A stretch of 64,000 bases of DNA. Source: Rhodocyclaceae bacterium. GTDB lineage: Bacteria > Pseudomonadota > Gammaproteobacteria > Burkholderiales > Rhodocyclaceae. Within the stretch, counting starts at the first letter, position 1; each line of letters opens with the position of its first letter. This document shows positions 5,923-30,348 of this stretch, one piece after another. Location of the stretch: the NCBI GenBank assembly GCA_027365955.1, contig DAHXLO010000036.1, positions 83,807 through 147,806 of the forward strand, given 5' to 3'. The notes beneath the pieces are model-generated. The model was not told the DNA's origin, ran no database searches, and saw only the letters and a list, made by a program, of their open reading frames with translations. Made by a program: the position numbers and the translations under genes.

Positions 5923-6539
5923 GGCGTGGTGGCCTGGAGGGTTGGAACGGGAACGTCGGGGTCGAGCACACGGGTCAGGTGCCGATGCACACTGCGCCGG
6001 TAGCGCGCCGCGGGTGCCCCGCCGGCGGGCCGGTGGTAGCGGCCGATGGCAAGCAGCCAGTCCTCGCCCGGCGTGTGCTGTTCGCGCAGGATTTCCGCAG
6101 CGATGGCGAGGTTGCGGTACGGGTCCAGCAGCTCGCAAGGCTGCGTGTAGCGATGCGTGTGGTAGCCGAGATTGACCTGGCCGAGGCCGGCGTCGATGCG
6201 ATTGGCCGGCGTGCTGGCGAGTGCCCGGCGTAGCCCCGCGCAGGCCTCCGCGCGGGTGGCATAGCGCTGTGGCGAGCCGGCGACGTTGAGCGTCCACGGC
6301 CAGGGGATCAGGCGCCCGCGCAGCATGGCGCCGCTCTCCTGCAAGGCCACCGCGTACAGCACCGTCGCCGGCACGTCTGCACGATGTGCCGCCAGTTGAT
6401 AGGCCGGCGGCGGCACTTCCCGCGCCAGGGCGGCCAACGCCCAGCCGCCGGTGGCGAGCAACAGCGCGGCGCTGGCGCAGCGGATGGCGACGCGGGATGG
6501 CCGACGCTTCCGGCCCGGAGTACCTATTGCCGCTGCCAT
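5919..6539 (-). CDS. Lytic transglycosylase (SLT) of the ICE transfer module
   Basis: VLYAVALQESG catalytic motif, IDAGLGQVN and AIGRYH. Confidence 0.88.
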   Translation of the reverse strand: MAAAIGTPGRKRRPSRVAIRCASAALLLATGGWALAALAREVPPPAYQLAAHRADVPATVLYAVALQESGAMLRGRLIPWPWTLNVAGSPQRYATRAEACAGLRRALASTPANRIDAGLGQVNLGYHTHRYTQPCELLDPYRNLAIAAEILREQHTPGEDWLLAIGRYHRPAGGAPAARYRRSVHRHLTRVLDPDVPVPTLQATTP

Positions 6540-7243
6540 TGGCCGTTCACCTCGCGCACCACGGCCGGCAGATCGCCGGGCAGGCCGAGCGACAGCCAGC
6601 GCCCCGCATCGTGGTTGAGCGTGATGGTGCGGGCGCGCACCCTGGCCGGGTCGATGCCCGCCTGGGTGGCCCACTGCCGGATGCGCGCGTCGTCCTGACG
6701 GCTGCCGACCATGTAGAGATCGAAGGCCGTGCCGGCCGCCTGCAACTGCTGCACGCGCTGCGCGCACGGTGCGCAGTCGGCCTTGACGAAGACCGCCAGG
6801 CGCCCGGAGCCGGTGTTGCCGGCACCCTGCGCCTTGGCGCCGGGCAGGCTCACGCGCGGCTGGCCGGGAAACAGGCGCTGCCACGCCGCGTCGTAGGCGC
6901 GCTGGTAGGCCAGCGCCTTGCCGACGCGCCGGGCCTCGGCCTGCACCTGCAACTCCGCGTAGCGCCTGCGCTCCTCCTCGCTGCGGGCCTCGATGCCCAG
7001 CGCCGTGAGCGGATCGAGCTGGGGCGAATAGACCCCGAGCGGCCCCTGCATCAGTTGGCGGTAACGTGCCCACTCCTCGGGCTGAAGCCCCCACTCCCGC
7101 GCCTGCCTCTCGTCGAGCGCGGCATCAGCGCCCGGCTGCACCTGGGCGGGCACCATGCGCGAGTTCGTCACCGGGGCCGGCTGGGCGGATGCGCCGAAAG
7201 CGGCGAACAGAACGACGGTAGCGAGCAACGGCCGCAGGTTCAT
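6524..7243 (-). CDS. ICE protein, PFL_4693-like family
   Basis: Signal peptide, WGL..EEW.RY, LDPLTALGIEA and a CxxC (CAPC) thioredoxin-like C-terminus. Confidence 0.82.
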   Translation of the reverse strand: MNLRPLLATVVLFAAFGASAQPAPVTNSRMVPAQVQPGADAALDERQAREWGLQPEEWARYRQLMQGPLGVYSPQLDPLTALGIEARSEEERRRYAELQVQAEARRVGKALAYQRAYDAAWQRLFPGQPRVSLPGAKAQGAGNTGSGRLAVFVKADCAPCAQRVQQLQAAGTAFDLYMVGSRQDDARIRQWATQAGIDPARVRARTITLNHDAGRWLSLGLPGDLPAVVREVNGQWQRQ

Positions 7244-7329
7244 GGTCAGCCTCCGCCGAGCCGCCTCAAGGAGGCTGAAGCCCCCTCGGGGGGCTGCGAA
7301 CGAAGTGAGCGTGGGGGTCATGGCACCTC

Positions 7330-7977
7330 CTACGGCACCGCAACGCGCTGCGTCTGGCCGTTCACCTGGAACACGCCCGCCTGCGCCTCGATGGACTGCA
7401 GTTGCCAGCCGCCCTCGGCATCGCCCTGGCGCAGCAGCCGGGCGCCCGCAAGCGAGGCCGCGGCGGTGGAGGTGATCGACAGAAAGCGCTCGCCGCCACG
7501 CAGCTCCACGCCCAGCACCCGGAACGGCGGCTCCGGCACCTTGGGCTTCGTCGCAACCGGAATGCGCGGGCGAGCGGCGGATGCCACCTGCCGGGCCTTC
7601 TCCAGGCGGGTTTCGATTGCGTTCACGCGCGCCTGCAGCGTCTGCAGGTCGATGGCCAGAGCCTTCGCCTCATCGGCCTCTTCGAGACGCGTCATCCGTT
7701 TGTCCAGCGCCTGCCGCGCGGTGGCGAATTCGGCCTGGCTGATCGGCGCCGGCCGGCGCTTGTCCGCATCGGCCTGTTGTTCGAGATCGGCCACGCGCAG
7801 GCCCAGCGCGTTGACCTGCGCATCCTGTGCGCTGCCCTGGGTCTGTTCGGCGAGCCGCGACAGGCCGACGCTGTTGATGAGTACCACGGCACTGATGAGC
7901 AGTAGCCAGAAGGCTGCGGCGATCTTGAGCCAGCGCGTGCGGGAATGGCGCTCGGATGGCGCTTGGGGAAAGGTCAT
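7330..7977 (-). CDS. Conserved ICE protein with N-terminal membrane anchor and coiled coil
   Basis: One TM segment, a coiled-coil stretch and PPFRVLGVELRGGERFL; sits between pilL and the PFL_4693-like gene. Confidence 0.75.
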   Translation of the reverse strand: MTFPQAPSERHSRTRWLKIAAAFWLLLISAVVLINSVGLSRLAEQTQGSAQDAQVNALGLRVADLEQQADADKRRPAPISQAEFATARQALDKRMTRLEEADEAKALAIDLQTLQARVNAIETRLEKARQVASAARPRIPVATKPKVPEPPFRVLGVELRGGERFLSITSTAAASLAGARLLRQGDAEGGWQLQSIEAQAGVFQVNGQTQRVAVP

Positions 7978-8540
7978 GGCTGCATCTCCTCGGGCCGGTC
8001 GGCGTCCGGCACGGGCGTGGCGGTGCCGGGCGGGTCAGCGGAAAGGAAGGTGGGAGCACCGTGCCGGCTGAAGCAGACCTGGCGCCTCAAGTCATCGACC
8101 GACAGCTCCCAGGCCGGGCCGGCAAGGGTCAGCAAGGCATCGCGCAGCATCAGCGGGCCCAGGCGCAGGTGTGCGGCAGGCAGCGGCAGCGCGTAGAGCG
8201 CGGCGGCCTCGGCCGCATCGCAGAGCCGGTAGCCCGAGCGCAGGAGCACATGGCGCATGGCATCGCCCACGCTGGCATCGAGCATGGGCGGAATCGAGAC
8301 CTCCACCGCCTGCTGCAAGAGATCACGCTGCGCGGGCTCCGGCACCAGCTCGACCAGGGTGTAGCGGCCGTAGCGGGCCACCGGAACGAAACCTGGCTCC
8401 GGCGCGACGGCGGTTGGCGATGCGGCCGGCACCGCTGGCACAGACGGCGTGGCGGTCGTGGCGCAGCCGGCGGCCAGGACGGAGCTGGCTATCGCGCCGT
8501 AGATTGTGGGAGGGCTACGAAAACGGGCGAACAGTCGCAT
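7974..8540 (-). CDS. pilL: PilL-like lipoprotein of PFGI-1 class ICEs
   Basis: Lipobox LAAGC, RYGRYTLVEL and PAAHLRLGP..LRDAL. Confidence 0.85.
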   Translation of the reverse strand: MRLFARFRSPPTIYGAIASSVLAAGCATTATPSVPAVPAASPTAVAPEPGFVPVARYGRYTLVELVPEPAQRDLLQQAVEVSIPPMLDASVGDAMRHVLLRSGYRLCDAAEAAALYALPLPAAHLRLGPLMLRDALLTLAGPAWELSVDDLRRQVCFSRHGAPTFLSADPPGTATPVPDADRPEEMQP

Positions 8541-8667: not shown

Positions 8668-9876
8668 CTACGTGGCAGCGACTTTCAGCAATACCTTCGT
8701 GAATGCTTCTGGTGCAAGGAGGAACGATTGGAAGCCATCAGCCCACACCGCCGCTTTGCCACGGGCATCCACAGTCCAGCCGTCGTCCGCTTTGAAGCGT
8801 GCTTCAGCGACGTTTACCAGATCGATGCCTAGTTCATGGAACAGCGCGATGTCACGATCTTCCAACTCGAAATGGATGGTGCTGTAGAAGTCCAGCGCCT
8901 CTCGCCCCCAATAGCCGACGTAGAGAATCGGCACGTCGGGTCTGGCACGCCGGGCAGCCTTCAGGAACGTGTTCAGATGGAGATCCGCTAGCCCGCTGCC
9001 TAGCACCAGAATCAGGTCTGCCTCCATGGCCTCCCGGTTGAGCGCCGAGTAGTAGAACGCATAGGGCGACTGCTGAAGGCGGCCGAGTTTGTCCAATCCG
9101 GTGATGATCGCGCCCCGCTCGACGTGGGTGCCATCCATCCTGTCAACGCCCGAGCCATTGAATCTGGCTTGCCGACGTGCCACGGCCTTGTCATCGAACC
9201 AAACGATGTCACCGATCTGATGCTCGCCGGGCACGGAGAATCCCATATGGACTGATCCGTGTAGATGGAACAAGGCCGGCTTGCCCCACTCCGCCCAGAA
9301 AGCCTTTCCGTCGAAGTCCGAGTGATCGCCATGTCGCTGCGTAAAGCCGGTGAAGTAGCGCCCTTGGGTCGCCTGGGCGACGAAATCATCGTAGTTGGTC
9401 GTGTACACGCGAGGGACGTACTGCTGCTCCAGCACCTCGAAGAACGCAGACAAGGGATTCAATGGTAGGGCTGGGTTGTCGCAGACTTCCGAGACCTTCG
9501 CATAGATGAAATCAAGCATCGCGCTGCAGGCGGCCTTGAGTGCTTGCTCAGGGTGCGTCACAGCGGTGCCCAGGAACGGATACATCACGGGTAGGAACTT
9601 GGGAACCGCGCCTTGCTTTGCGCGCAACTGGCTGAGTTCGTGCATGACGTGATAGATGCGCTCAAAGTGGGCTTCGGCCTCGCTGGCATAGTAGGTGCGC
9701 AACTTGTCTCGAATGTCGAAATAGACCTCCGTTCCTCCCACATGGGCACAGTATTTGTCGGCCTTGATGGCGTCATCGATAAGATTCCCGAATCCAATCG
9801 TAGCGGGGATGCCCAGCTCCACCGAGGCTCCGGCCCCCATCACGACCAATGCCCTCTGCTTACCGTTCTTGTTCAT
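8668..9876 (-). CDS. SIR2-like (SIR2_2) domain protein, putative NADase defence effector
   Basis: GAGAS, YTTNYD, HLHGS and LVLGSGLAD motifs. GAGG precedes ATG 9876 (alternative start 9888). Confidence 0.85.
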   Translation of the reverse strand: MNKNGKQRALVVMGAGASVELGIPATIGFGNLIDDAIKADKYCAHVGGTEVYFDIRDKLRTYYASEAEAHFERIYHVMHELSQLRAKQGAVPKFLPVMYPFLGTAVTHPEQALKAACSAMLDFIYAKVSEVCDNPALPLNPLSAFFEVLEQQYVPRVYTTNYDDFVAQATQGRYFTGFTQRHGDHSDFDGKAFWAEWGKPALFHLHGSVHMGFSVPGEHQIGDIVWFDDKAVARRQARFNGSGVDRMDGTHVERGAIITGLDKLGRLQQSPYAFYYSALNREAMEADLILVLGSGLADLHLNTFLKAARRARPDVPILYVGYWGREALDFYSTIHFELEDRDIALFHELGIDLVNVAEARFKADDGWTVDARGKAAVWADGFQSFLLAPEAFTKVLLKVAAT

Positions 9877-9935
9877 TACCCGCCTCATAAAGAGATCGAA
9901 GATAACCTAACAGAAGGCAGCCCCGAAGGGCCGTG

Positions 9936-9968
9936 GAAAGAAGCCGGCGACCCCGAGGGGCCGCCGGC
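9936..9968 (-). terminator. Intrinsic terminator after the ICE helicase
   Basis: Minus strand GCCGGCGGCCCCTCGGGGTCGCCGGC hairpin followed by TTCTTTC. Confidence 0.7.
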
Positions 9969-9981
9969 ATGAGCACATGGA

Positions 9982-22816: not shown

Positions 22817-22839
22817 GAGCTACCCCCTGGGGATAGCTC
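22817..22839. promoter_or_regulatory. Palindromic box, copy 1 (about 195 bp upstream of topB)
   Basis: GAGCTACCCCCTGGGGATAGCTC, one mismatch to a perfect inverted repeat. Confidence 0.6.
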
Positions 22840-23287: not shown

Positions 23288-23832
23288 GGTGACTCCTTGG
23301 TGGTGGGTGGAACGGACGCGGTATTCCCGTGGACGCGCCGCAGGTAGGCCGCTTCCGCCTGCGCGGCCTTGTTGGCGCATTCCAGGGCTTGACGAGCGAT
23401 GCTGTGGGTCAGGCTGATCTGCATGTTCAGCACGATGCGCTGCAGTTCCATCGCGTACAGCTCGTCGATCAGCGAGGCCGGTGTCGCGGGGTTGGCCAGC
23501 AGGGCCTCCCACAACGCCACGCCCATGGAGGAACGGTCGAGGTTGCGCCAGCGCAGGAAGGTCGTCCCTGCGCCAGTGGCCTGCTGGGCCAGTTGCACGT
23601 CGAGCAGACTGAATGGATAGGCGCGCGCCTGGGGCAGCACGCGCCGCTGCGCCAGGCCAATCACGTCGTCGCGCAGCGCTGCGCACTGGCTGGCCCAGGT
23701 CTCCAGACTCCCCTTACCCTTAAAAGGCTGTAAAAGGCCTTTTAGGTAGCCTGCGTGTTCCAGCCGCTGGAAGTCCGCCTGTTCCAGCGCCACGAAGCGC
23801 GTGGAGTGGCTGATAGGGGGCGATGCTGTCAT
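23284..23832 (-). CDS. DUF3158-like ICE protein
   Basis: LKGLLQPFKGKG and FLRWRN motifs; lies between the inrR-like gene and ssb. Confidence 0.8.
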   Translation of the reverse strand: MTASPPISHSTRFVALEQADFQRLEHAGYLKGLLQPFKGKGSLETWASQCAALRDDVIGLAQRRVLPQARAYPFSLLDVQLAQQATGAGTTFLRWRNLDRSSMGVALWEALLANPATPASLIDELYAMELQRIVLNMQISLTHSIARQALECANKAAQAEAAYLRRVHGNTASVPPTTKESP

Positions 23833-24617
23833 GCGCCAGCACCCTCATCGCCCGCCGCACCATCGGCTGCGCCACCCGTGGAAGCCTGCGCATCGGGCAC
23901 GATGGCAGGCGCAGCAGGCGGCGTGCCGGGCTTGTTCGTCCGCCGCGCGATGGGTGGCGCGAAGCGCGAGCGGCGCGTGCCTTCCAGCACGTCCTGCGGC
24001 AACTCGCCGAACTTCTCCAGCGCCGCTCGCGCCGCCGCGTTCTTCGCCGCGAAGTCGTCGCGCGTCGTGCCCGAGTAGCGGTACTGCTGGGCCAGCGAGA
24101 ACAGGCTGCGCAGCGCGTGCGCACCATCATTGAGCCAGCGCTCCAAGGTGCTGCGGTCGATCAGCGCCGTGTGGTGCGCCAGGATGAGTTTGCGTGCCAG
24201 GTCGTCGTAGTCGGCCAGCAGATACACCGCCATGAAGCCGAGCTGGGCGTTCACGAACAGCGGCAGCTTCACCGGCTGCACGTTCATGTTCTCGCCCAGC
24301 GACAGCGCCGATGGCACGTCGGCCAAGGCCTGATCCACCTGGTCGCGCAGGGTCTGCAGACGGGTCTTGGTGTCGGCGAGCTTGTCCTCGATCCGCAACA
24401 TCCACCAGTCCGAGTACGGGTCGTCCTGCTCGGCGCCGCGCTTCATCTTGTTCATGGCGCCGATGAAGCCGTTGAGACCGATGATGCCTGGGCGCCCCTC
24501 GGTCGGCGCGCGGCCGTGCCAGATGCGCGAAGCGTGGTGCGTGTGCAGCGTCAGCGACATCGCGCTGCGCAGCGATCCGAGATTCAGTTGCAGGGGTTCT
24601 GTGCGTTCGTTGGCCAT
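23829..24617 (-). CDS. PFL_4669-family ICE protein, InrR-like activator
   Basis: LTLHTHHASRIWHGR and DDPYSDWW motifs; same position as inrR in ICEclc. Confidence 0.8.
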   Translation of the reverse strand: MANERTEPLQLNLGSLRSAMSLTLHTHHASRIWHGRAPTEGRPGIIGLNGFIGAMNKMKRGAEQDDPYSDWWMLRIEDKLADTKTRLQTLRDQVDQALADVPSALSLGENMNVQPVKLPLFVNAQLGFMAVYLLADYDDLARKLILAHHTALIDRSTLERWLNDGAHALRSLFSLAQQYRYSGTTRDDFAAKNAAARAALEKFGELPQDVLEGTRRSRFAPPIARRTNKPGTPPAAPAIVPDAQASTGGAADGAAGDEGAGA

Positions 24618-24737
24618 GGGAGCGACTCGCGGTGAATTGGCGAGTCGCCAGCATCGGCATCGGCCGGAAGGCTGTCAGTCAACAAACCGCAGCCCATGCG
24701 CGCCCGGTTTGTTCCGCGCGGAAGGCTGTGTGTGCCG

Positions 24738-24758
24738 GCTATCCCCTGGGGATAGCTC
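24738..24758. promoter_or_regulatory. Palindromic box, copy 2 (about 120 bp upstream of the inrR-like gene)
   Basis: GCTATCCCCTGGGGATAGC perfect inverted repeat around a central T. Confidence 0.6.
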
Positions 24759-24805: not shown

Positions 24806-25666
24806 CTATGCTTCGCGAGGTCTGTACCAGGCGGCCCGTTGCCCCTCCACCTCACGGTAGCGAAGCTCGAACAGGCGGCACTCATGCACCACCTGCCGCC
24901 AACTGCTGCAGCCGTACTTGGCTGGAAGCTGCTCGGGATGCCGGTCCGCGATCCAGCGGCCAGCGGCGGCGATGGGTGTCCAGCCCTCGACGGCCAACTG
25001 CGCGGCGGCCTCGCGCAGCGCGCGGACGATGCCGGCGGCCGGCCAGTCCACCGTGCCGTCCGGCGCGATGCCATTGACCACCAGGTCGTGGAACACATCC
25101 GACTGGACGAACTCCGCTGCCAGGCGCCGCGCCTGATCCATGTGCTCGGCCCAGCCGCGCAGCTGCTCGAAGTGTTGATCGATGCGCGTGTAGGCGGAAC
25201 CGAGTTCGTCCTGTGCAACGCGGCACCCGTCCACGGTCCATAGATCGTGCTGATCGATGAAGTGGTGCACCAGAGTGTTGCGCAGCGATACCAGGTCTTT
25301 GAGGTCGGCCTGGGTGTTGGCGTAGTCCTGCGCAGACAGGCTCAGTTGCACGCGCGTGCGAAAGGAAATCACGTCGCCGGGAAGATCGTCGTCGCGTTCC
25401 TCGCCGCCATTTCCATCGGTGACGACATACGAACCAAACAGTTGTCCGACCAACGTGCCCAGGGTCTTGGTCGCGGCATCTTCAATCCGCGCTGCGCGAA
25501 TGGCCTCCAGCGAATGCGCCGGGCCTGAAATCTCGTGGTGGGCCACGATGGCTTTCATGAGGCGCTCGTATTGTTGAAGGCGCAACAGGCATCTGCCCAG
25601 CAAGCGCTGAACGTCTTGCTGTAGTGGTTGCAGTGCGTTTGTGGCGGGGGAAGTCGTCATGTCCAT
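24806..25666 (-). CDS. HEPN-motif plus OST-HTH/LOTUS domain protein (accessory insertion)
   Basis: LRNTLVHHF (R-x4-H) in a helical N-terminal part. C-terminal GW..IA.AG.WI...HPE..P.KYGCSSW.QVV...LFE resembles LOTUS. The start could be 25660, 25666 or 25729. Confidence 0.7.
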   Translation of the reverse strand: MDMTTSPATNALQPLQQDVQRLLGRCLLRLQQYERLMKAIVAHHEISGPAHSLEAIRAARIEDAATKTLGTLVGQLFGSYVVTDGNGGEERDDDLPGDVISFRTRVQLSLSAQDYANTQADLKDLVSLRNTLVHHFIDQHDLWTVDGCRVAQDELGSAYTRIDQHFEQLRGWAEHMDQARRLAAEFVQSDVFHDLVVNGIAPDGTVDWPAAGIVRALREAAAQLAVEGWTPIAAAGRWIADRHPEQLPAKYGCSSWRQVVHECRLFELRYREVEGQRAAWYRPREA

Positions 25667-25771
25667 CGTCGGCCGGGCTCGTGCGTGGCTGTCCTCGTCT
25701 GATTCACAGGCGACAGTTTCGCCTGTCATTCGGCGGGCGACAATCGAGCGCGGCGGAAAGATGTCTGTTCC

Positions 25772-25790
25772 AGCTATCCCCTGGGGATAG
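25772..25790. promoter_or_regulatory. Palindromic box, copy 3
   Basis: AGCTATCCCCTGGGGATAG, between the STY4528-like stop and the HEPN-LOTUS start. Confidence 0.6.
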
Positions 25791-25796
25791 TCAACA

Positions 25797-26990
25797 TCAG
25801 CGATCACGCAAGGCTTCTCGGAGCTGAGCCAGGTAGGCTCGTGCGACCTCGGGGTCAGCCGCACGGGATGCCGGCGGTGACGAGGGCGCAGGTGACGGGG
25901 GCGCTGGCGGTGCCGATGCACTTTCTCCGGCCCAGGCCTTGAACTCCCCGCGGATCGCCTTCTGGATGATGCCAAACAGGTAGCCGGCCGGGTTGCGTAC
26001 CGCGCTGTTGTGGCAGCGTGCCGCCCACTCGTCGAGAACGGCCTGCCTCTGCGCCTCGTCCACCTGCTGCAGCGCCACCAGCGCGCCGGCCTGCTGCTCG
26101 TCCTTCAAGCGCAGGAAACGCTCGGGTAGCCGCAGGTTCTGCAAGGCCCTCGCGCGCGGTACTGTACGTACTTCATTTATACGATCATTACGTACTGTAC
26201 GGTCCTCCTTCGGAATCCGAAGAGAGCCGTCCGGCGCGGGTTTCGGTCCTGCTTCGGATTCCGAAGACGGGCGCGCAGCATTCCGAAGAAGGGCTTCCTG
26301 GCCTTCTTCGGATTCGTGGTCCGCACCCTCCTGTGGATAACCTGGCGTCGTCCAGCCATGCAGCGCCATGCGCTGCGCCAGCACCTGCAAGCGGGTCGGC
26401 AATGTGCGGCCGCTGAGCAGCGGGTCTTCGGCAATCTCCTTGAGCGTGTTCATGCCCACGATCTGTACCGCCTTGGCGGCATGGGTCAGCGCCTGGCTGA
26501 CCAGGCCGAGGTAGTCGGCATCGAGCTGCATCGCCTCGAAGGGCGACAGCGGTTCGTCGTGCAGCACGTAGAGGTTGCCTTGGATGCGGCCGGTCTTCGG
26601 GTCGCGCCGCCGCCGCGCCAGGCTGAGCCAGCGCGTCAGCCGCAGCAGCGTCAAGGCGCGCGCCACGGTCTCGTGCGAGGCTTGCGCCGCACAGGGCATG
26701 GACGCCAGATAGGGGCGGAGCTGGTCGTAGGTGGGAAAGGCGGTCACGCCGTCGTCGTTGAGCTGCAGGCGGAACACCTGCCAGGCGTTGCGCTCCAGCG
26801 GCGTCAGGCGCCGGTCGAGGAACAGCCTGCGCGGCACGCTCTCATGGCGGTTGCCGCTGTAGAGGAAACCGTCGGCGGCCGGCGCCGTGCCCTGCGCCGG
26901 TTCCTTCGGCTCAAGGTGCCGCAGCGCCTCGTCGAACAACGCCGACAGCGCAACCGGGCCATCGCGCCGTGATGCGCTGCCCGTGGTCAT
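25797..26990 (-). CDS. STY4528-like ICE helix-turn-helix/replication protein
   Basis: FLYSGNRHESVPRRLFLDRRLTPLERNAW and terminal NPAGYLFGII motifs. Confidence 0.82.
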   Translation of the reverse strand: MTTGSASRRDGPVALSALFDEALRHLEPKEPAQGTAPAADGFLYSGNRHESVPRRLFLDRRLTPLERNAWQVFRLQLNDDGVTAFPTYDQLRPYLASMPCAAQASHETVARALTLLRLTRWLSLARRRRDPKTGRIQGNLYVLHDEPLSPFEAMQLDADYLGLVSQALTHAAKAVQIVGMNTLKEIAEDPLLSGRTLPTRLQVLAQRMALHGWTTPGYPQEGADHESEEGQEALLRNAARPSSESEAGPKPAPDGSLRIPKEDRTVRNDRINEVRTVPRARALQNLRLPERFLRLKDEQQAGALVALQQVDEAQRQAVLDEWAARCHNSAVRNPAGYLFGIIQKAIRGEFKAWAGESASAPPAPPSPAPSSPPASRAADPEVARAYLAQLREALRDR

Positions 26991-26992
26991 GG

Positions 26993-27553
26993 CTACACCA
27001 GCCCCTGGTCGATCCAGTTCCGTATCGCCGACCAGATCACCGACATGGGCAGGGTCATGGCCTCGGCCAGGTCCATGGTCAGCGCCAGCATCGCCATGTC
27101 GTCGTTCAGTGCGATGTGCCGCTCCGTGATGCCGGCCTTCCAGCGTTCCCACAGGGCCACGTCCTGCGCCTCGTCGAGCACCGGATGCCGGCCCTTGCGC
27201 TTGGGCAGTCCGAGGATGTCGCGGCGCAGCGCCACTTCTTGATGCGTGAGGCCGTAGAACTTGCTGACCATCTCCGTGCTCGCCTCCAGGCGCAGCATGC
27301 GGTCCACCGTGGCGATCTCCCGCTCCACGTCGTGCACCTGGCTCAGCAGCCGCTTCAACACTTCCCGGTTCACCGACACCGAGCACCACGACACCGTGGC
27401 ATTCACCAGCATGCTCACGAGTTCGGGGTGCTTCAGCGCATCCAGCTCCTCCTCGCCGAAGCCCATCGCCTTGCAGCGGCGCAACTGCCCGTTGCGCAGG
27501 TCATGCAGGGCCTGGGCGATCACGGCCTGGTTGAGTGGGTGCGGTGCCGACAT
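26993..27553 (-). CDS. DUF2857 protein (BisC-like activator subunit)
   Basis: NQAVIAQALHDLRNGQLRRCKAMGF N-terminus; directly downstream of the ParB-like gene. Confidence 0.8.
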   Translation of the reverse strand: MSAPHPLNQAVIAQALHDLRNGQLRRCKAMGFGEEELDALKHPELVSMLVNATVSWCSVSVNREVLKRLLSQVHDVEREIATVDRMLRLEASTEMVSKFYGLTHQEVALRRDILGLPKRKGRHPVLDEAQDVALWERWKAGITERHIALNDDMAMLALTMDLAEAMTLPMSVIWSAIRNWIDQGLV

Positions 27554-27570: not shown

Positions 27571-29229
27571 TCAGGAATCCTGGCTCGCTACGCCGGCTTC
27601 CAGATCCAGCAGCCGGCGCGCCAGGCGCAGCAAACGGAACAGCTTCACCAGCGCAGCATCGCTCAGGCGTGTGGCCGAGCCGCCGTGGCCATGCAGCAGC
27701 GCCGCCAGCTCGTCGGCCAGCCGCGCGCGGTCCAATCCATTCGCGGAGGGCGGAGCCGCACTCAGCACATGCAGCAGGGTCAGCACCGCCCGCGCGAACG
27801 CCGGCAGCGCCTTCGCCTGGCCCACGGCCGGTGCCACGCAGACGAAGCCGATGCCGCCGACGCTGGCCTCAATGTGGTCGGCGACCGCCGCTTCCTCGCC
27901 GATCTCGCGCGCGAACTGCGCGATGTGCACGCGCAGGCGATCCGGCACGTCCAGCCCCGGCTCGACGTACCAGACGTCCGAGATGGGATAGAGCCCGCCG
28001 ACCTGCACGGGGATCGCACGCAGCGCATCGGCCTCGAAGTCGGGCAGCTTGTCGCCGAGCTGGTCCGCGACCATCCGCTGGATGGACTGCAGGCGCTCGG
28101 TGGTCGGTGCCGGTGTCACGATGTGCCCTTGCAGGCGCTCGTCGCGTTGCCCGTGCTGGTCCTCCGGCGCTTCGGGCGATGCAAGCGGTGTCGCTGCTGG
28201 CGCCGAAGGCGCGACCGGCGTGGTGTCGCGCGGCACAGACGAGGCGGGTGGCTGCCGAGGCGCGGAGACCGGCGGGGGAGGACCAGCAGGCACGACAGGC
28301 GCTGCCGGTGGCGTCGGTGCCGCCGGTTCGCTGGTCAGCGCACGCTGGCGGCTTTCGCTGTCGTTGATCTCCAGCGCCAGCGTGTCGTAGTCCGCCTCCA
28401 GCAGCTCGGCCATCTGGCCGACCAGCTCGTCCTGCACCCGCTGCGGCGAGAAGTCGTCCGGCTGTGTGTCGAACTGCGTCAGCACGTCCTGAAACAAGGT
28501 GGCGAAGTCCACAGTCACGGTGCGGCCCAGCGCACGCCGCTCCCAGGTGCGCTCGCACGCCTTGCGCAGCACCGCGAGCCGGTCCACCTGATGCCGGCCC
28601 AATCCGCCGTACAACAGCGTCGGGATCGCCGGCAGTAGATAGCGCACCGCATCGTTCATGCGGCTGATGTGTGACTGCGGCACCGGATAGCCGTCGGCAG
28701 TCAGTCGCCGCGCGAGTTCGCTCTGCGACAGCGCCTGGCCGCTTTCCTGCTCGTAGAACTCGCGCGCCTTCTCGATGCCCAACGCCCGCTCGATGAAGGT
28801 CAGCCCGCCGCGCAGCTCGTTCTCGGCCAGATGCCCGGTCAGCGCCACGATTTCGCCGCGCGCCGGCCACGGGCGGAACAGGCACGCAATGCGGAAAAAG
28901 CGCTCCTCCTTGGTCTCGCTCCACAACTCGCGCAGGATCGCCAGCCGCGTGTTGCCGCCGTTGCGAATGATGTAGTGCGCCTCGCCCGGCCTGCGCGTGA
29001 TCGCGGGGGGCGCGTCCAGCCCACGTTCGCGGATGGACGCCTTGATCTCCGCATAGGCCGGGTTGCGCGTCACGCGTGGGTCGTGGTCGTAGGGCCGCAA
29101 CTGGTCCAGCGTCACCACCATCGGCGTGTCGGCGATGGGGTCGCTCAAGGTCGCGGCCGAAGGGCCGCTGCGCTCGAAGCCGGTGGCCAGCAGCTTGGCA
29201 GCCATGTTCTGCGGCGTCAGCTCAGCCAC
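27571..29229 (-). CDS. parB: ParB-family protein, PFGI-1 class (BisD-like)
   Basis: NGGNTRL ParB-box, HLAENELRG and an HTH with ISRM; GTG start with GGAG RBS. Confidence 0.85.
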   Translation of the reverse strand: MAELTPQNMAAKLLATGFERSGPSAATLSDPIADTPMVVTLDQLRPYDHDPRVTRNPAYAEIKASIRERGLDAPPAITRRPGEAHYIIRNGGNTRLAILRELWSETKEERFFRIACLFRPWPARGEIVALTGHLAENELRGGLTFIERALGIEKAREFYEQESGQALSQSELARRLTADGYPVPQSHISRMNDAVRYLLPAIPTLLYGGLGRHQVDRLAVLRKACERTWERRALGRTVTVDFATLFQDVLTQFDTQPDDFSPQRVQDELVGQMAELLEADYDTLALEINDSESRQRALTSEPAAPTPPAAPVVPAGPPPPVSAPRQPPASSVPRDTTPVAPSAPAATPLASPEAPEDQHGQRDERLQGHIVTPAPTTERLQSIQRMVADQLGDKLPDFEADALRAIPVQVGGLYPISDVWYVEPGLDVPDRLRVHIAQFAREIGEEAAVADHIEASVGGIGFVCVAPAVGQAKALPAFARAVLTLLHVLSAAPPSANGLDRARLADELAALLHGHGGSATRLSDAALVKLFRLLRLARRLLDLEAGVASQDS

Positions 29230-29458
29230 GGCCATTCTCCTGCGCTTGCCGGTCGGCGCGGCGAAGCTGTGCGCGGGCATTGCGGTCGGCACGGTTGTCG
29301 CTCGCCGTCGAGCTGGTGTAGATCGACGCGCAGCCTTGCTTCGTGAATTTCAGGTGCCCGCCGGACGTGCGAACCACGCGCCAGCCTTCGCCCAGCGCGA
29401 ACTCGATCAGCGCGCGCAGCCGTTCGCGGCCGCGCGCCAGTTCATGCGCGCTCGCCAT
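29222..29458 (-). CDS. Small HicA-like protein (position of shi in ICEclc)
   Basis: GWRVVRTSGGHLKF motif; overlaps both parA and parB. Confidence 0.7.
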   Translation of the reverse strand: MASAHELARGRERLRALIEFALGEGWRVVRTSGGHLKFTKQGCASIYTSSTASDNRADRNARAQLRRADRQAQENGRG

Positions 29459-30308
29459 GGCCGGCCCCTCCCGCATCGGCCCGACCGGTGACCAGCGCGA
29501 AGCGCTCCCGCCACACGGGGAACAGTTCGCCGGCCAGCGTGCGCATGGTCTCCAACGCCGCGGGCGCCGTGCGCCCAGCCGGCTGCCGGTACTCCACCCG
29601 GTGCACCGGCAATCCTCGTGTCGCAGCGCGCGGATAGGCTTCGATGGCCGGTACGTCGGTGCCCAGCACCTGCACGCCGGCCTGTTCCTGAAACACCTGT
29701 CGCAGCGCCTGCTGGACCAGCCGCGCATTCGACGACACAGGATGCACACGGTTGATGAGCAGACGCAGCGGCGGCGGCTCGATGCCCAGGTGCCGATACG
29801 GCGCGATGTCCTCGATCAGTTGCAGCGTGCCGCGCCGCAGCTCGCGCGCCGCGAGGATTTCCGGCGTCACCGGCGACAGCGCCAGGTCGGACGCCAGCAC
29901 CGCCATCTCCAGCAGCACGCTGCGCGCGCCCTGGGTGTCGATCAGCAGCAAGTCGTAGTGCGTGCGGAAGACGGGAAGCAGATGGCGCAGTCGCAGGCGC
30001 CCATCCGGAGCGTGCAGCAGCAGCGTGTTCAGTTCGCCGCGGTCGTCGTTGGAGAGCACCAGGTCCAGGCCCGCGATCACGGTACGCGACACCAGTTGCT
30101 CGATGCGCCGCTCGTTGAAGGCCAGCATCTGGTAGATGCCGCCGGGCGCGCGAACGTCCAGCGTGAAGTAGCTCGACAGCGTGGGCTGCACGTCCAGGTC
30201 CAGCAGCAGCACGCGCAGCCCGGCATCGGCGATGAAGCCGCCCAGGTTGGCCGCCGTCGTGGTCTTGCCCACGCCGCCCTTGGTCGAAATGATGGACACC
30301 ACCTGCAT
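29442..30308 (-). CDS. parA: ParA/Soj ATPase
   Basis: KGGVGKTT, DLDVQ and LIDTQG motifs. Confidence 0.92.
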   Translation of the reverse strand: MQVVSIISTKGGVGKTTTAANLGGFIADAGLRVLLLDLDVQPTLSSYFTLDVRAPGGIYQMLAFNERRIEQLVSRTVIAGLDLVLSNDDRGELNTLLLHAPDGRLRLRHLLPVFRTHYDLLLIDTQGARSVLLEMAVLASDLALSPVTPEILAARELRRGTLQLIEDIAPYRHLGIEPPPLRLLINRVHPVSSNARLVQQALRQVFQEQAGVQVLGTDVPAIEAYPRAATRGLPVHRVEYRQPAGRTAPAALETMRTLAGELFPVWRERFALVTGRADAGGAGHGERA

Positions 30309-30348
30309 GGGCTTCTCCTCGTCGAATGGCATGAACCGAGAAGAAGCG

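Follow-up and report, generated by a model that had tools for sequence, protein, structure and literature searches.

Bacterial LOTUS (OST-HTH) domains are, apart from the family presented here, almost always fused to NYN/LK RNases (PMC2848206). These NYN/LK-nuclease-LOTUS proteins (MARF1-like, DUF88/LabA-type) consist of one polypeptide in which a predicted RNase precedes a minimal LOTUS domain at the C-terminus, and were proposed to act as stand-alone RNA-degrading enzymes (PMC2848206, PMC7498356). The single-protein HEPN RNases of defence and abortive infection (ApeA, AbiD/AbiF/Abi2, AbiV-HEPN, Tha, RnlA) share a common R-[polar]-x3-H motif and are found on prophages, plasmids and islands, often beside restriction-modification (R-M) genes, some of them being activated on infection and having no dedicated antitoxin (PMC3710099). 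In the integrative and conjugative element (ICE) ICEclc, the ParB-like protein BisD and the DUF2857 protein BisC form the master activator of transfer competence (PMC7423338). We analysed a stretch of 64,000 nucleotides from a Rhodocyclaceae bacterium (assembly GCA_027365955.1, contig DAHXLO010000036.1, positions 83,807 to 147,806; hereafter the window), in which an ICE related to ICEclc carries, on the minus strand, an open reading frame (ORF) of 286 codons at positions 24806-25666, coding for a helical HEPN-like N-terminal domain and a C-terminal LOTUS domain.

Like the NYN-LOTUS proteins, and at a similar size, the protein of the window combines in one polypeptide a predicted RNase at the N-terminus and a minimal LOTUS domain at the C-terminus, and we likewise propose it as a stand-alone RNA-degrading enzyme. 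Unlike them, its N-terminal domain is all-helical with Rx4H and Ex3K motifs instead of the PIN/NYN alpha/beta fold and has no NYN Pfam match, and its family is tied to mobile elements, whereas a survey of 2010 found no conserved neighbourhoods for NYN-LOTUS genes (PMC2848206). The mobile location, sometimes beside R-M genes, is shared with the HEPN defence RNases, from which the family differs in having no significant profile or structure match to them and in that its activity is a predicted one. The bacterial NYN-LOTUS nuclease is the nearest architectural analogue, and the single-protein HEPN defence RNases are the nearest functional analogues. A HEPN-LOTUS fusion was described neither in the OST-HTH survey (PMC2848206) nor in the HEPN survey (PMC3710099), and no paper turned up in a literature search that combined ICEs with OST-HTH. 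The coding sequence and the features of its product are the following:

24806-25666, minus strand: HEPN-like/LOTUS coding sequence, 286 amino acids (ORF call, homologues, selection)
25067-25666, minus strand: N-terminal helical HEPN-like domain, residues 1-200 (AlphaFold2; no Pfam family at threshold)
25553-25567, minus strand: E34-x3-K38 motif on the first long helix, with Q31 and G24 nearby (conservation; HEPN definition)
25265-25282, minus strand: R129-N130-T-L-V-H134, the candidate catalytic Rx4H motif (conservation in 122 relatives)
24842-25045, minus strand: minimal LOTUS/OST-HTH winged helix, residues 208-275, with wing strands reaching residue 283 (PF12872, Foldseek)

The LOTUS-like C-terminus reported by the initial annotation is a genuine LOTUS/OST-HTH domain. 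Residues 208-275 match PF12872 with 39.2 bits (E 6.4e-10, cut-off 23.8), as do 42 of 50 relatives, and the full-length AlphaFold2 model (pLDDT 94.9, pTM 0.84) shows there helices 212-224, 232-242 and 256-263 with strands 229-231, 266-273 and 276-283. The top Foldseek matches in the PDB were the LOTUS structures 2kpm (NE0665) and 2kzv (CV_0373), both with a probability of 1.00 and a TMt of 0.61 and 0.57, respectively, followed by PadR-type regulators. The domain belongs to the minimal class, since the C-terminal extension helix is absent from this part of the model. Minimal LOTUS domains bind G-rich or G4 RNA in several organisms (PMC7498356).

The N-terminal domain was modelled by AlphaFold2 with high confidence within the full-length protein as well as alone (pLDDT 94.0, pTM 0.87 alone), and comprises helices 7-43, 50-65, 69-80, 112-139 and 145-187 plus a small sheet. 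The R-x4-H motif (RNTLVH) that the initial annotation had noticed in a helical region lies at residues 129-134 in the helix 112-139, with a pLDDT of about 98, 5-10 residues before the end of the helix; it is followed by a loop (140-144) and the helix 145-187, and the insert between residues 44 and 111 forms two short helices plus strands. A single R-x4-H in a 286-residue protein is unremarkable. We examined its conservation in two alignments, one with 50 relatives and a larger one with 122, which spans 34-85% identity with a median of 40%. In the 122 relatives R129 and N130 are conserved at 100% and H134 at 99%, so that the R/H pair did hold in the homologues, and E34 and K38 are each conserved at 98% (position 38 being R in the remaining sequences). 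The best-conserved positions of the family are G24, Q31, E34, K38, G70, R129, N130 and H134, and the family-wide conservation of the R, N and H residues is beyond chance. Published descriptions of HEPN domains define an Rx4-6H motif with a polar residue (N/D/H) after the R, located where helix-3 ends, ahead of the loop leading to helix-4, and an upstream acidic residue, usually within Ex3[KR] (PMC3710099); the R-N-x3-H and E-x3-K motifs and the helix-end placement in the model are consistent with this description. The N-terminal domain occurs also alone, in a version of 178 residues which has both motifs and no LOTUS domain (L140:4998-5534, in genome G095).

In the profile comparisons the best sequence relatives were DUF3644 (EC042_2821-type) and RiboL-PSP-HEPN, both sub-threshold and matching the motif helix. 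Among the 50 members, the sub-threshold Pfam matches concerned HEPN families almost exclusively: DUF3644 in 26 (best E 4.8e-4), HEPN_RiboL-PSP in 15 (best E 2.8e-4), HepT-like in five and HEPN_Cthe2314 in one. For the family consensus the top two of 24,736 models were again DUF3644 (E 0.0012) and RiboL-PSP-HEPN (E 0.0063), over the motif region, and one plasmid member aligned to RiboL-PSP-HEPN, still sub-threshold, over residues 30-132, that is from the Ex3K helix to the motif. DUF3644-type proteins are found in R-M operons and RiboL-PSP-HEPN proteins in operons with ParB (PMC3710099); their C-terminal partner is a restriction endonuclease or an L-PSP domain, compared with LOTUS here, and the likeness amounts to at most 20 bits in Pfam and, in profile-profile comparison, to about 25 aligned columns. 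With hhalign, the N-domain family (37 and 122 sequences) was compared with two kinds of DUF3644 alignment, one made from genome hits and the other from a homologue search run for the purpose; that search added little depth, as all proteins it gave shared at least 69% identity with their query. The R of the motif paired with R and the H with H.

Several results weigh against a HEPN domain acting on RNA. All these Pfam scores lie below the curated cut-offs, with at most 20.2 bits for DUF3644 (cut-off 27.6), at most about 17 bits for HEPN_RiboL-PSP (cut-off 28.4) and at most 14.8 bits for HepT-like (cut-off 23.5), and the matches may be driven largely by the short motif. The hhalign alignments covered 24-25 columns only, with P 0.035-0.08 and a probability of about 1%. 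The HEPN fold, whose absence the initial annotation had named as a refuting result, was not recovered: Foldseek with the N-terminal domain gave in the PDB generic helical bundles (best E 0.3), the HepT structures 7bxo_F and 6m6u_G appearing at E about 4, and in BFVD no significant match (best E 0.46), while the full-length model matched the PDB through its LOTUS/winged-helix part only. Foldseek is weak on helical bundles, and this null lowers the odds of HEPN membership and does not exclude it. In the model the segment 7-43 is one helix of 37 residues with no clear helix-1/helix-2 hairpin. For the LOTUS part, NE0665, the closest structural match, showed no binding of G4 RNA (PMC7498356). We regard membership of the HEPN superfamily as likely but unproven, because neither Foldseek (PDB, BFVD) nor hhalign gives a significant domain-level match, and we find it likely that the domain works like a HEPN RNase.

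The lack of a significant HEPN fold or profile match would also suit a non-catalytic regulator or adaptor, in which the N-terminal domain would be a scaffold and the LOTUS domain would bind DNA or RNA, modulating ICE activation (for example the output of BisDC or InrR) or mRNA stability. Winged helices often bind DNA, PadR-type regulators came next after LOTUS in Foldseek, no antitoxin is present and, as described below, the gene lies in a regulatory region beside bisS sites and AcaB-type regulator genes. A near-invariant set of polar residues, R-N-x3-H and E-x3-K, across 34-85% identity is however typical of an active site; moreover, the settings of the protein family include unrelated elements whose regulators differ, plasmids and overlaps with R-M genes, and a version with the N-terminal domain only exists. 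We consider such a regulator unlikely, and retain for the following a HEPN-type RNase.

The gene belongs to a large family under selection. A search of 5.8 billion proteins returned 1106 relatives of the 286-residue protein, the top 120 being full-length and at least 70% identical, and 1157 matches were found among representatives of clusters at 50% identity (294 below 1e-30), the layout of a HEPN-like and a LOTUS domain being retained down to about 35% identity. Copies with 95-100% protein identity in the same ICE context were present in 56 species genomes (loci L003-L058), from Thauera, Zoogloea, Dyella, Pandoraea, Rhodanobacter, Stutzerimonas, Pseudomonas, Castellaniella, Luteimonas, Achromobacter, Ralstonia and others. 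The frame is intact in all 46 complete near-identical ICE loci, and the ratio of non-synonymous to synonymous substitution rates (dN/dS) is about 0.20 among their 37 distinct nucleotide versions; the gene is under purifying selection. In the same loci protein identity over the whole parA-topB region is 85-100%, in upwards of 50 species belonging to two classes of proteobacteria, which points to a very recent and wide dissemination of this ICE lineage. An isolated fragment holding only the last ~30 residues, 91-100% identical, was seen at the end of a 10.4-kb contig, adjoining a chemoreceptor gene (G000:C96:10302-10397, L092/L127), and is a remnant or an assembly artefact.

The start codon conserved in the family is probably the second ATG, at 25660, giving a protein of 284 residues, because relatives without the first ATG keep the second one. 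A frame starting with TTG and extending to 25975 (389 residues) was rejected, as it overlaps the upstream STY4528 gene and the relatives begin near residue 1-3, and so was a 250-residue version starting at M37, as called in NCBI-style annotation, which would cut off the invariant G24, Q31 and E34. The public annotation of several orthologues (P0005, P0037, P0058; Thauera, Accumulibacter and others) uses this internal Met37 start with 250 residues; the start is probably mis-called there, with loss of the helix carrying G24/Q31/E34.

The HEPN-like/LOTUS gene is inserted in a conserved backbone, whose features around it are the following:

25797-26966, minus strand: upstream STY4528-family gene, in the position of ICEclc orf96323 (NF040582, 407.6 bits)
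25774-25790, unstranded: bisS-type palindrome CTATCCCCTGGGGATAG, upstream of the gene (core shared with ICEclc bisS)
25706-25726, minus strand: leader element, an 8-bp perfect palindrome ACAGGCGA/TCGCCTGT around a conserved block GCGAAACTG (conservation)
24739-24755, unstranded: second bisS palindrome, between the stop of the gene and the AcaB-like gene (part of a 38-nt repeat)
24650-24682, minus strand: PinR-like promoter of the AcaB-like gene, TTGACT, 17 nt, TGCCGATGCT (likeness to ICEclc PinR)
23829-24617, minus strand: downstream AcaB/PFL_4669 gene, in the position of ICEclc orf95213 (TIGR03761 293 bits, PF08900 278 bits)

On the same strand, the upstream neighbours are a ParA gene (29442-30332), an ICE_PFGI_1_parB-type ParB-like gene (27571-29292) and a DUF2857 gene (26993-27553), and the order continues with the STY4528 gene, the HEPN-like/LOTUS gene, the AcaB/PFL_4669 gene, DUF3158, SSB and topoisomerase III (TopB). 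The element is an ICEclc/PFGI-1-type conjugative element. In ICEclc the published order is bisD-bisC-orf96323, the promoter PinR, then orf95213-inrR-ssb (PMC7423338, PMC3395598, PMC2892462), orf95213 being the first gene of the inrR-ssb operon (PMC2892462). The window shares with this bistability regulon (alpA-parA-shi-bisD-bisC-orf96323, PinR-orf95213-inrR-ssb) the order, the strand, a BisD-like ParB, a BisC-like DUF2857 protein, the bisS core and the PinR-like promoter; unlike ICEclc, whose published order has no gene between orf96323 and orf95213 and which has two bisS sites, it has an extra gene and three bisS sites. The PinR of ICEclc reads TTGACT / TGTCGATCCT, with a transcription start 25 nt before orf95213 (PMC2892462), and the promoter of the window would put the start about 26 nt before the ATG of the AcaB-like gene. 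This agreement with the start mapped for ICEclc supports the identification of the AcaB-like gene with orf95213, and DUF3158 would be the equivalent of inrR by position.

The extra gene between the STY4528-like gene and those of the inrR operon, on which the initial annotation was built, was confirmed by comparison with other ICEs. The AcaB-like backbone gene was sampled in 401 genomes of the phylum and eight ICE loci were inspected: in seven of them the STY4528 gene is directly followed by the AcaB-like gene, and the LOTUS gene is present in one, which is of the lineage of the window. The HEPN-like/LOTUS gene is an accessory cargo gene of the ICE. Its GC content at third codon positions, 0.77, is the lowest among nine backbone-region genes (others 0.79-0.92) and thus consistent with a later acquisition. 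The junction between STY4528 and AcaB holds in another ICE a different insert of 2.8 kb (L109:5126-7980), comprising a short paralogue of the STY4528 N-terminus, a 146-residue ORF and a 430-residue P-loop ATPase, which suggests that this junction is a cargo hotspot. The locus scan was seeded with the closer of two alignments (A2), the other one (A1) being too divergent as a query. Insertions of 1.5-1.9 kb were seen in three further loci, where they separate the gene from bisS or from capP, or directly follow it (L064:5149-7001, L074:5103-7001, L081:7855-9311).

We located the 17-bp palindrome CTATCCCCTGGGGATAG at three positions of the window, against 0.04 expected by chance: 25774-25790, 24739-24755 and, with one mismatch, 22820-22836. 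It shares its core with the ICEclc bisS site GAGCTATCCCCnGGGGATAGCTC. In ICEclc, which has two bisS sites, BisD loads at bisS in a CTP-dependent manner and then spreads to the BisDC-activated promoters (bioRxiv 10.1101/2024.09.16.613209). A 38-nt direct repeat (24718-24755 and 25753-25790, 87% identical) brackets the HEPN-like/LOTUS gene and contains bisS copies, and it is through this repeat that the third bisS copy goes with the inserted gene. We found also that bisS is present on both sides of the gene in all 65 ICE loci, including divergent ones at 81-86% identity and a Cupriavidus necator element without the STY4528 gene. The gap between the STY4528 gene and the HEPN-like/LOTUS gene is 130 nt, with no terminator-like site between the two, and no PinR-like or sigma-70 consensus promoter was found upstream of the HEPN-like/LOTUS gene. 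With no promoter of its own and no terminator after STY4528, the most economical reading from its position is that the gene is transcribed by read-through from the BisR/BisDC-driven activation operon, or from a BisDC-dependent start.

Relatives at 71-77% identity were found in a second element, as part of a fixed module in 15 of 15 loci. One strand carries there the genes for an XRE protein, a M78 peptidase, the HEPN-like/LOTUS homologue, orf71, DUF2924 and a large serine recombinase, and the opposite strand a divergent orf411-orf320(-DUF2188) operon. The XRE and M78 genes are full-length PADLOC matches of capH (79 bits) and capP (190 bits), and the homologue is the co-directional third gene, 10-20 nt behind capP. 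CapH and CapP form a repressor and peptidase switch of immune operons triggered by DNA damage, akin to the ImmR/ImmA pairs of mobile elements, which control excision. The homologue stands directly behind capH-capP in 15/15 loci; unlike the published targets of this immune control, which lie on the opposite strand, it is co-directional downstream of capP, and the pair is absent from the ICE of the window. The orf411-orf320(-DUF2188) operon (L084/L086, ~5965-8470, minus, and 8707-9981) is itself in the canonical CapH-CapP target position in the 15 loci. The orf411 and orf320 proteins have no Pfam or PADLOC match, and this operon may be an uncharacterised CapH/CapP-controlled system.

These two settings open a different purpose for the same chemistry, other than stopping phages: an RNase belonging to the life cycle of the element, which would be made only in the few transfer-competent or DNA-damaged cells and there degrade or remodel host RNA in favour of excision, transfer or replication. 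By its position between two bisS sites, seen in 65/65 ICE loci, the gene would belong to the BisDC regulon, and in the second element it stands between a CapH-CapP/ImmR-ImmA-like switch and the DUF2924-serine recombinase genes; the transfer-competent cells of ICEclc are a differentiated minority (PMC7423338, PMC9286271), and a missing antitoxin could be tolerated if expression were limited to cells already committed. However, seven of the eight inspected ICEs, and ICEclc according to its published gene order, function without the gene, and relatives overlapping a type IIG R-M gene or adjoining type I R-M genes are unlinked to the activation of an element. We judge this purpose rather unlikely, and place likewise low an activation-coupled RNase that different elements would have wired behind their own switches (BisD/bisS-BisDC in one case, CapH-CapP in the other), with the LOTUS domain guiding the HEPN-like nuclease, reshaping or shutting off host RNA at excision or transfer. 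If true, conjugative elements would have in such an RNase a new kind of host takeover, and it would give bacterial LOTUS domains a first functional role outside the NYN nucleases.

Several of the other homes of the family are neighbourhoods of a defence type. On a Nitrogeniibacter plasmid the gene stands between a PLD nuclease gene and a type IIG R-M enzyme (1144 bits), its stop overlapping the start of the R-M gene; on Aeromonas IncU plasmids it abuts a type I hsdR-rhuM-hsdS-hsdM operon; on a metagenomic contig it adjoins DruE-like and GajB-like helicase fragments. One relative adjoins a M78-DUF4411 (PIN-like) pair, and another stands at the margin of an island containing a primase-helicase and HigBA. 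The 178-residue version with the N-terminal domain only is beside the tyrosine integrase of a filamentous-prophage-like element, with replication and Zot-type genes; a gene for a 137-residue membrane protein lies directly upstream of it. The check that the initial annotation had proposed, whether homologues cluster in defence islands, thus gave several relatives in such neighbourhoods.

To the same side as the fold results above belong the following points on the proposed role. The defence-type neighbourhoods amount to a few examples and not to a statistical enrichment, and several other contexts of relatives, some plasmid ones among them, are uninformative. No homologue was found in 50,697 phage records. 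Among Pfam, NCBIfam, PADLOC and PHROGs, LOTUS was the sole match of the 286-residue protein, and no PADLOC-DB v2 family matched even at E <= 10; the lack of matches in PADLOC, NCBIfam and PHROGs agrees with the view of the initial annotation that no characterised system has this architecture. A PHROG match to a 'single strand annealing protein' (E 0.23) was taken as noise, and sequence searches of the PDB, run from the single protein as well as from the family profile, gave only weak LOTUS-region or spurious matches. Regulation of the gene by BisDC or CapH is read from its position alone.

A single gene with no antitoxin had been proposed. No antitoxin-like ORF is adjacent in the ICE, where the 130-nt upstream and 188-nt downstream flanks of the gene contain no ORF; the picture of an isolated gene was modified by the capH-capP genes preceding it in 15/15 second-element loci and the bisS sites on both sides of it in the ICE, and because of these transcriptional control may replace an antitoxin. 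Between the STY4528 gene and the HEPN-like/LOTUS gene, the leader element at 25706-25726 has a GCGAAACTG core which is invariant in nine loci, and its palindrome is unique within the window. A RNA hairpin was considered and set aside: what is conserved is the sequence itself, with no compensatory changes that would maintain the pairing, and a protein-binding or promoter element is more likely. Rfam gave no match in the window between 20000 and 30000.

Such a leader would also have a place in an addiction module, the protein being then the toxin of a toxin-antitoxin system that stabilises the element, with an unrecognised antitoxin which could be a backbone protein, a small RNA from the leader or a CapH/CapP-like protein. 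HEPN toxins are commonly found in toxin-antitoxin pairs (PMC3710099), the leader is conserved, the pair of Xre and metallopeptidase genes that precedes the homologue in 15 loci is reminiscent of three-component toxin modules, and a PIN-like DUF4411 gene and a M78 peptidase adjoin one relative. No small ORF partner is nevertheless kept across contexts, the neighbours differing wholly between the ICE, the CapH-CapP element and the plasmids, and the palindrome shows no compensatory changes and Rfam gave no match between 20000 and 30000. We hold a toxin-antitoxin module to be improbable, the least favoured of the readings considered here.

Returning to a conflict effector, we infer the chemistry, RNA binding, regulation and biological role as follows. 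The N-terminal helical domain of 200 residues would be a very divergent, metal-independent RNase of the HEPN type, with R129-N130-x3-H134 at the helix end and E34-x3-K38 on the first long helix as the active site; if the enzyme resembles other HEPN enzymes, both subunits of a dimer would probably contribute to this site. RNA, perhaps G-rich or structured, would be recruited or sensed by the winged helix of the minimal LOTUS domain, as is assumed from the analogy with the bacterial NYN-LOTUS nucleases. Safety would come from transcriptional control instead of an antitoxin: the gene would be made mainly when the ICE switches on, since it is on the same strand as the BisDC genes and 130 nt behind STY4528, with no terminator and with two bisS sites; in the second element, the homologue would be produced as the third gene after the DNA-damage switch CapH-CapP. 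The payoff to the element would be conflict-related, either abortive-infection-type defence or competition with other invaders, because relatives overlap or adjoin R-M and other defence genes. To this package as a whole, that is a HEPN-type RNase with a LOTUS domain, conditionally transcribed, with conflict or abortive-infection-type defence as its leading role, we give about an even chance.

HEPN domains are fused to many partners and candidate defence genes are numerous; as a new effector of conflict or defence the gene is a good candidate, though an unproven one. If the N-terminal domain proves to be an active HEPN-type RNase, the family, with its roughly 1,100 protein clusters, would be a sizeable group of unannotated RNA-targeting effectors; the ICE that carries it is near-identical (95-100% protein) in over 55 beta- and gammaproteobacterial species. 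The domain would then be the first non-NYN nuclease partner of bacterial LOTUS domains, and an example of how a potentially toxic enzyme can be kept without an antitoxin, behind the activation switch of the element. If the domain is non-catalytic, the gene would still be a conserved one, situated in the control region of an ICE lineage that has been very successful. For the biology of ICEs, the gene marks the STY4528/AcaB junction, beside the BisD loading sites, as a cargo hotspot, and provides a connection of transfer competence with RNA metabolism that can be put to the test.

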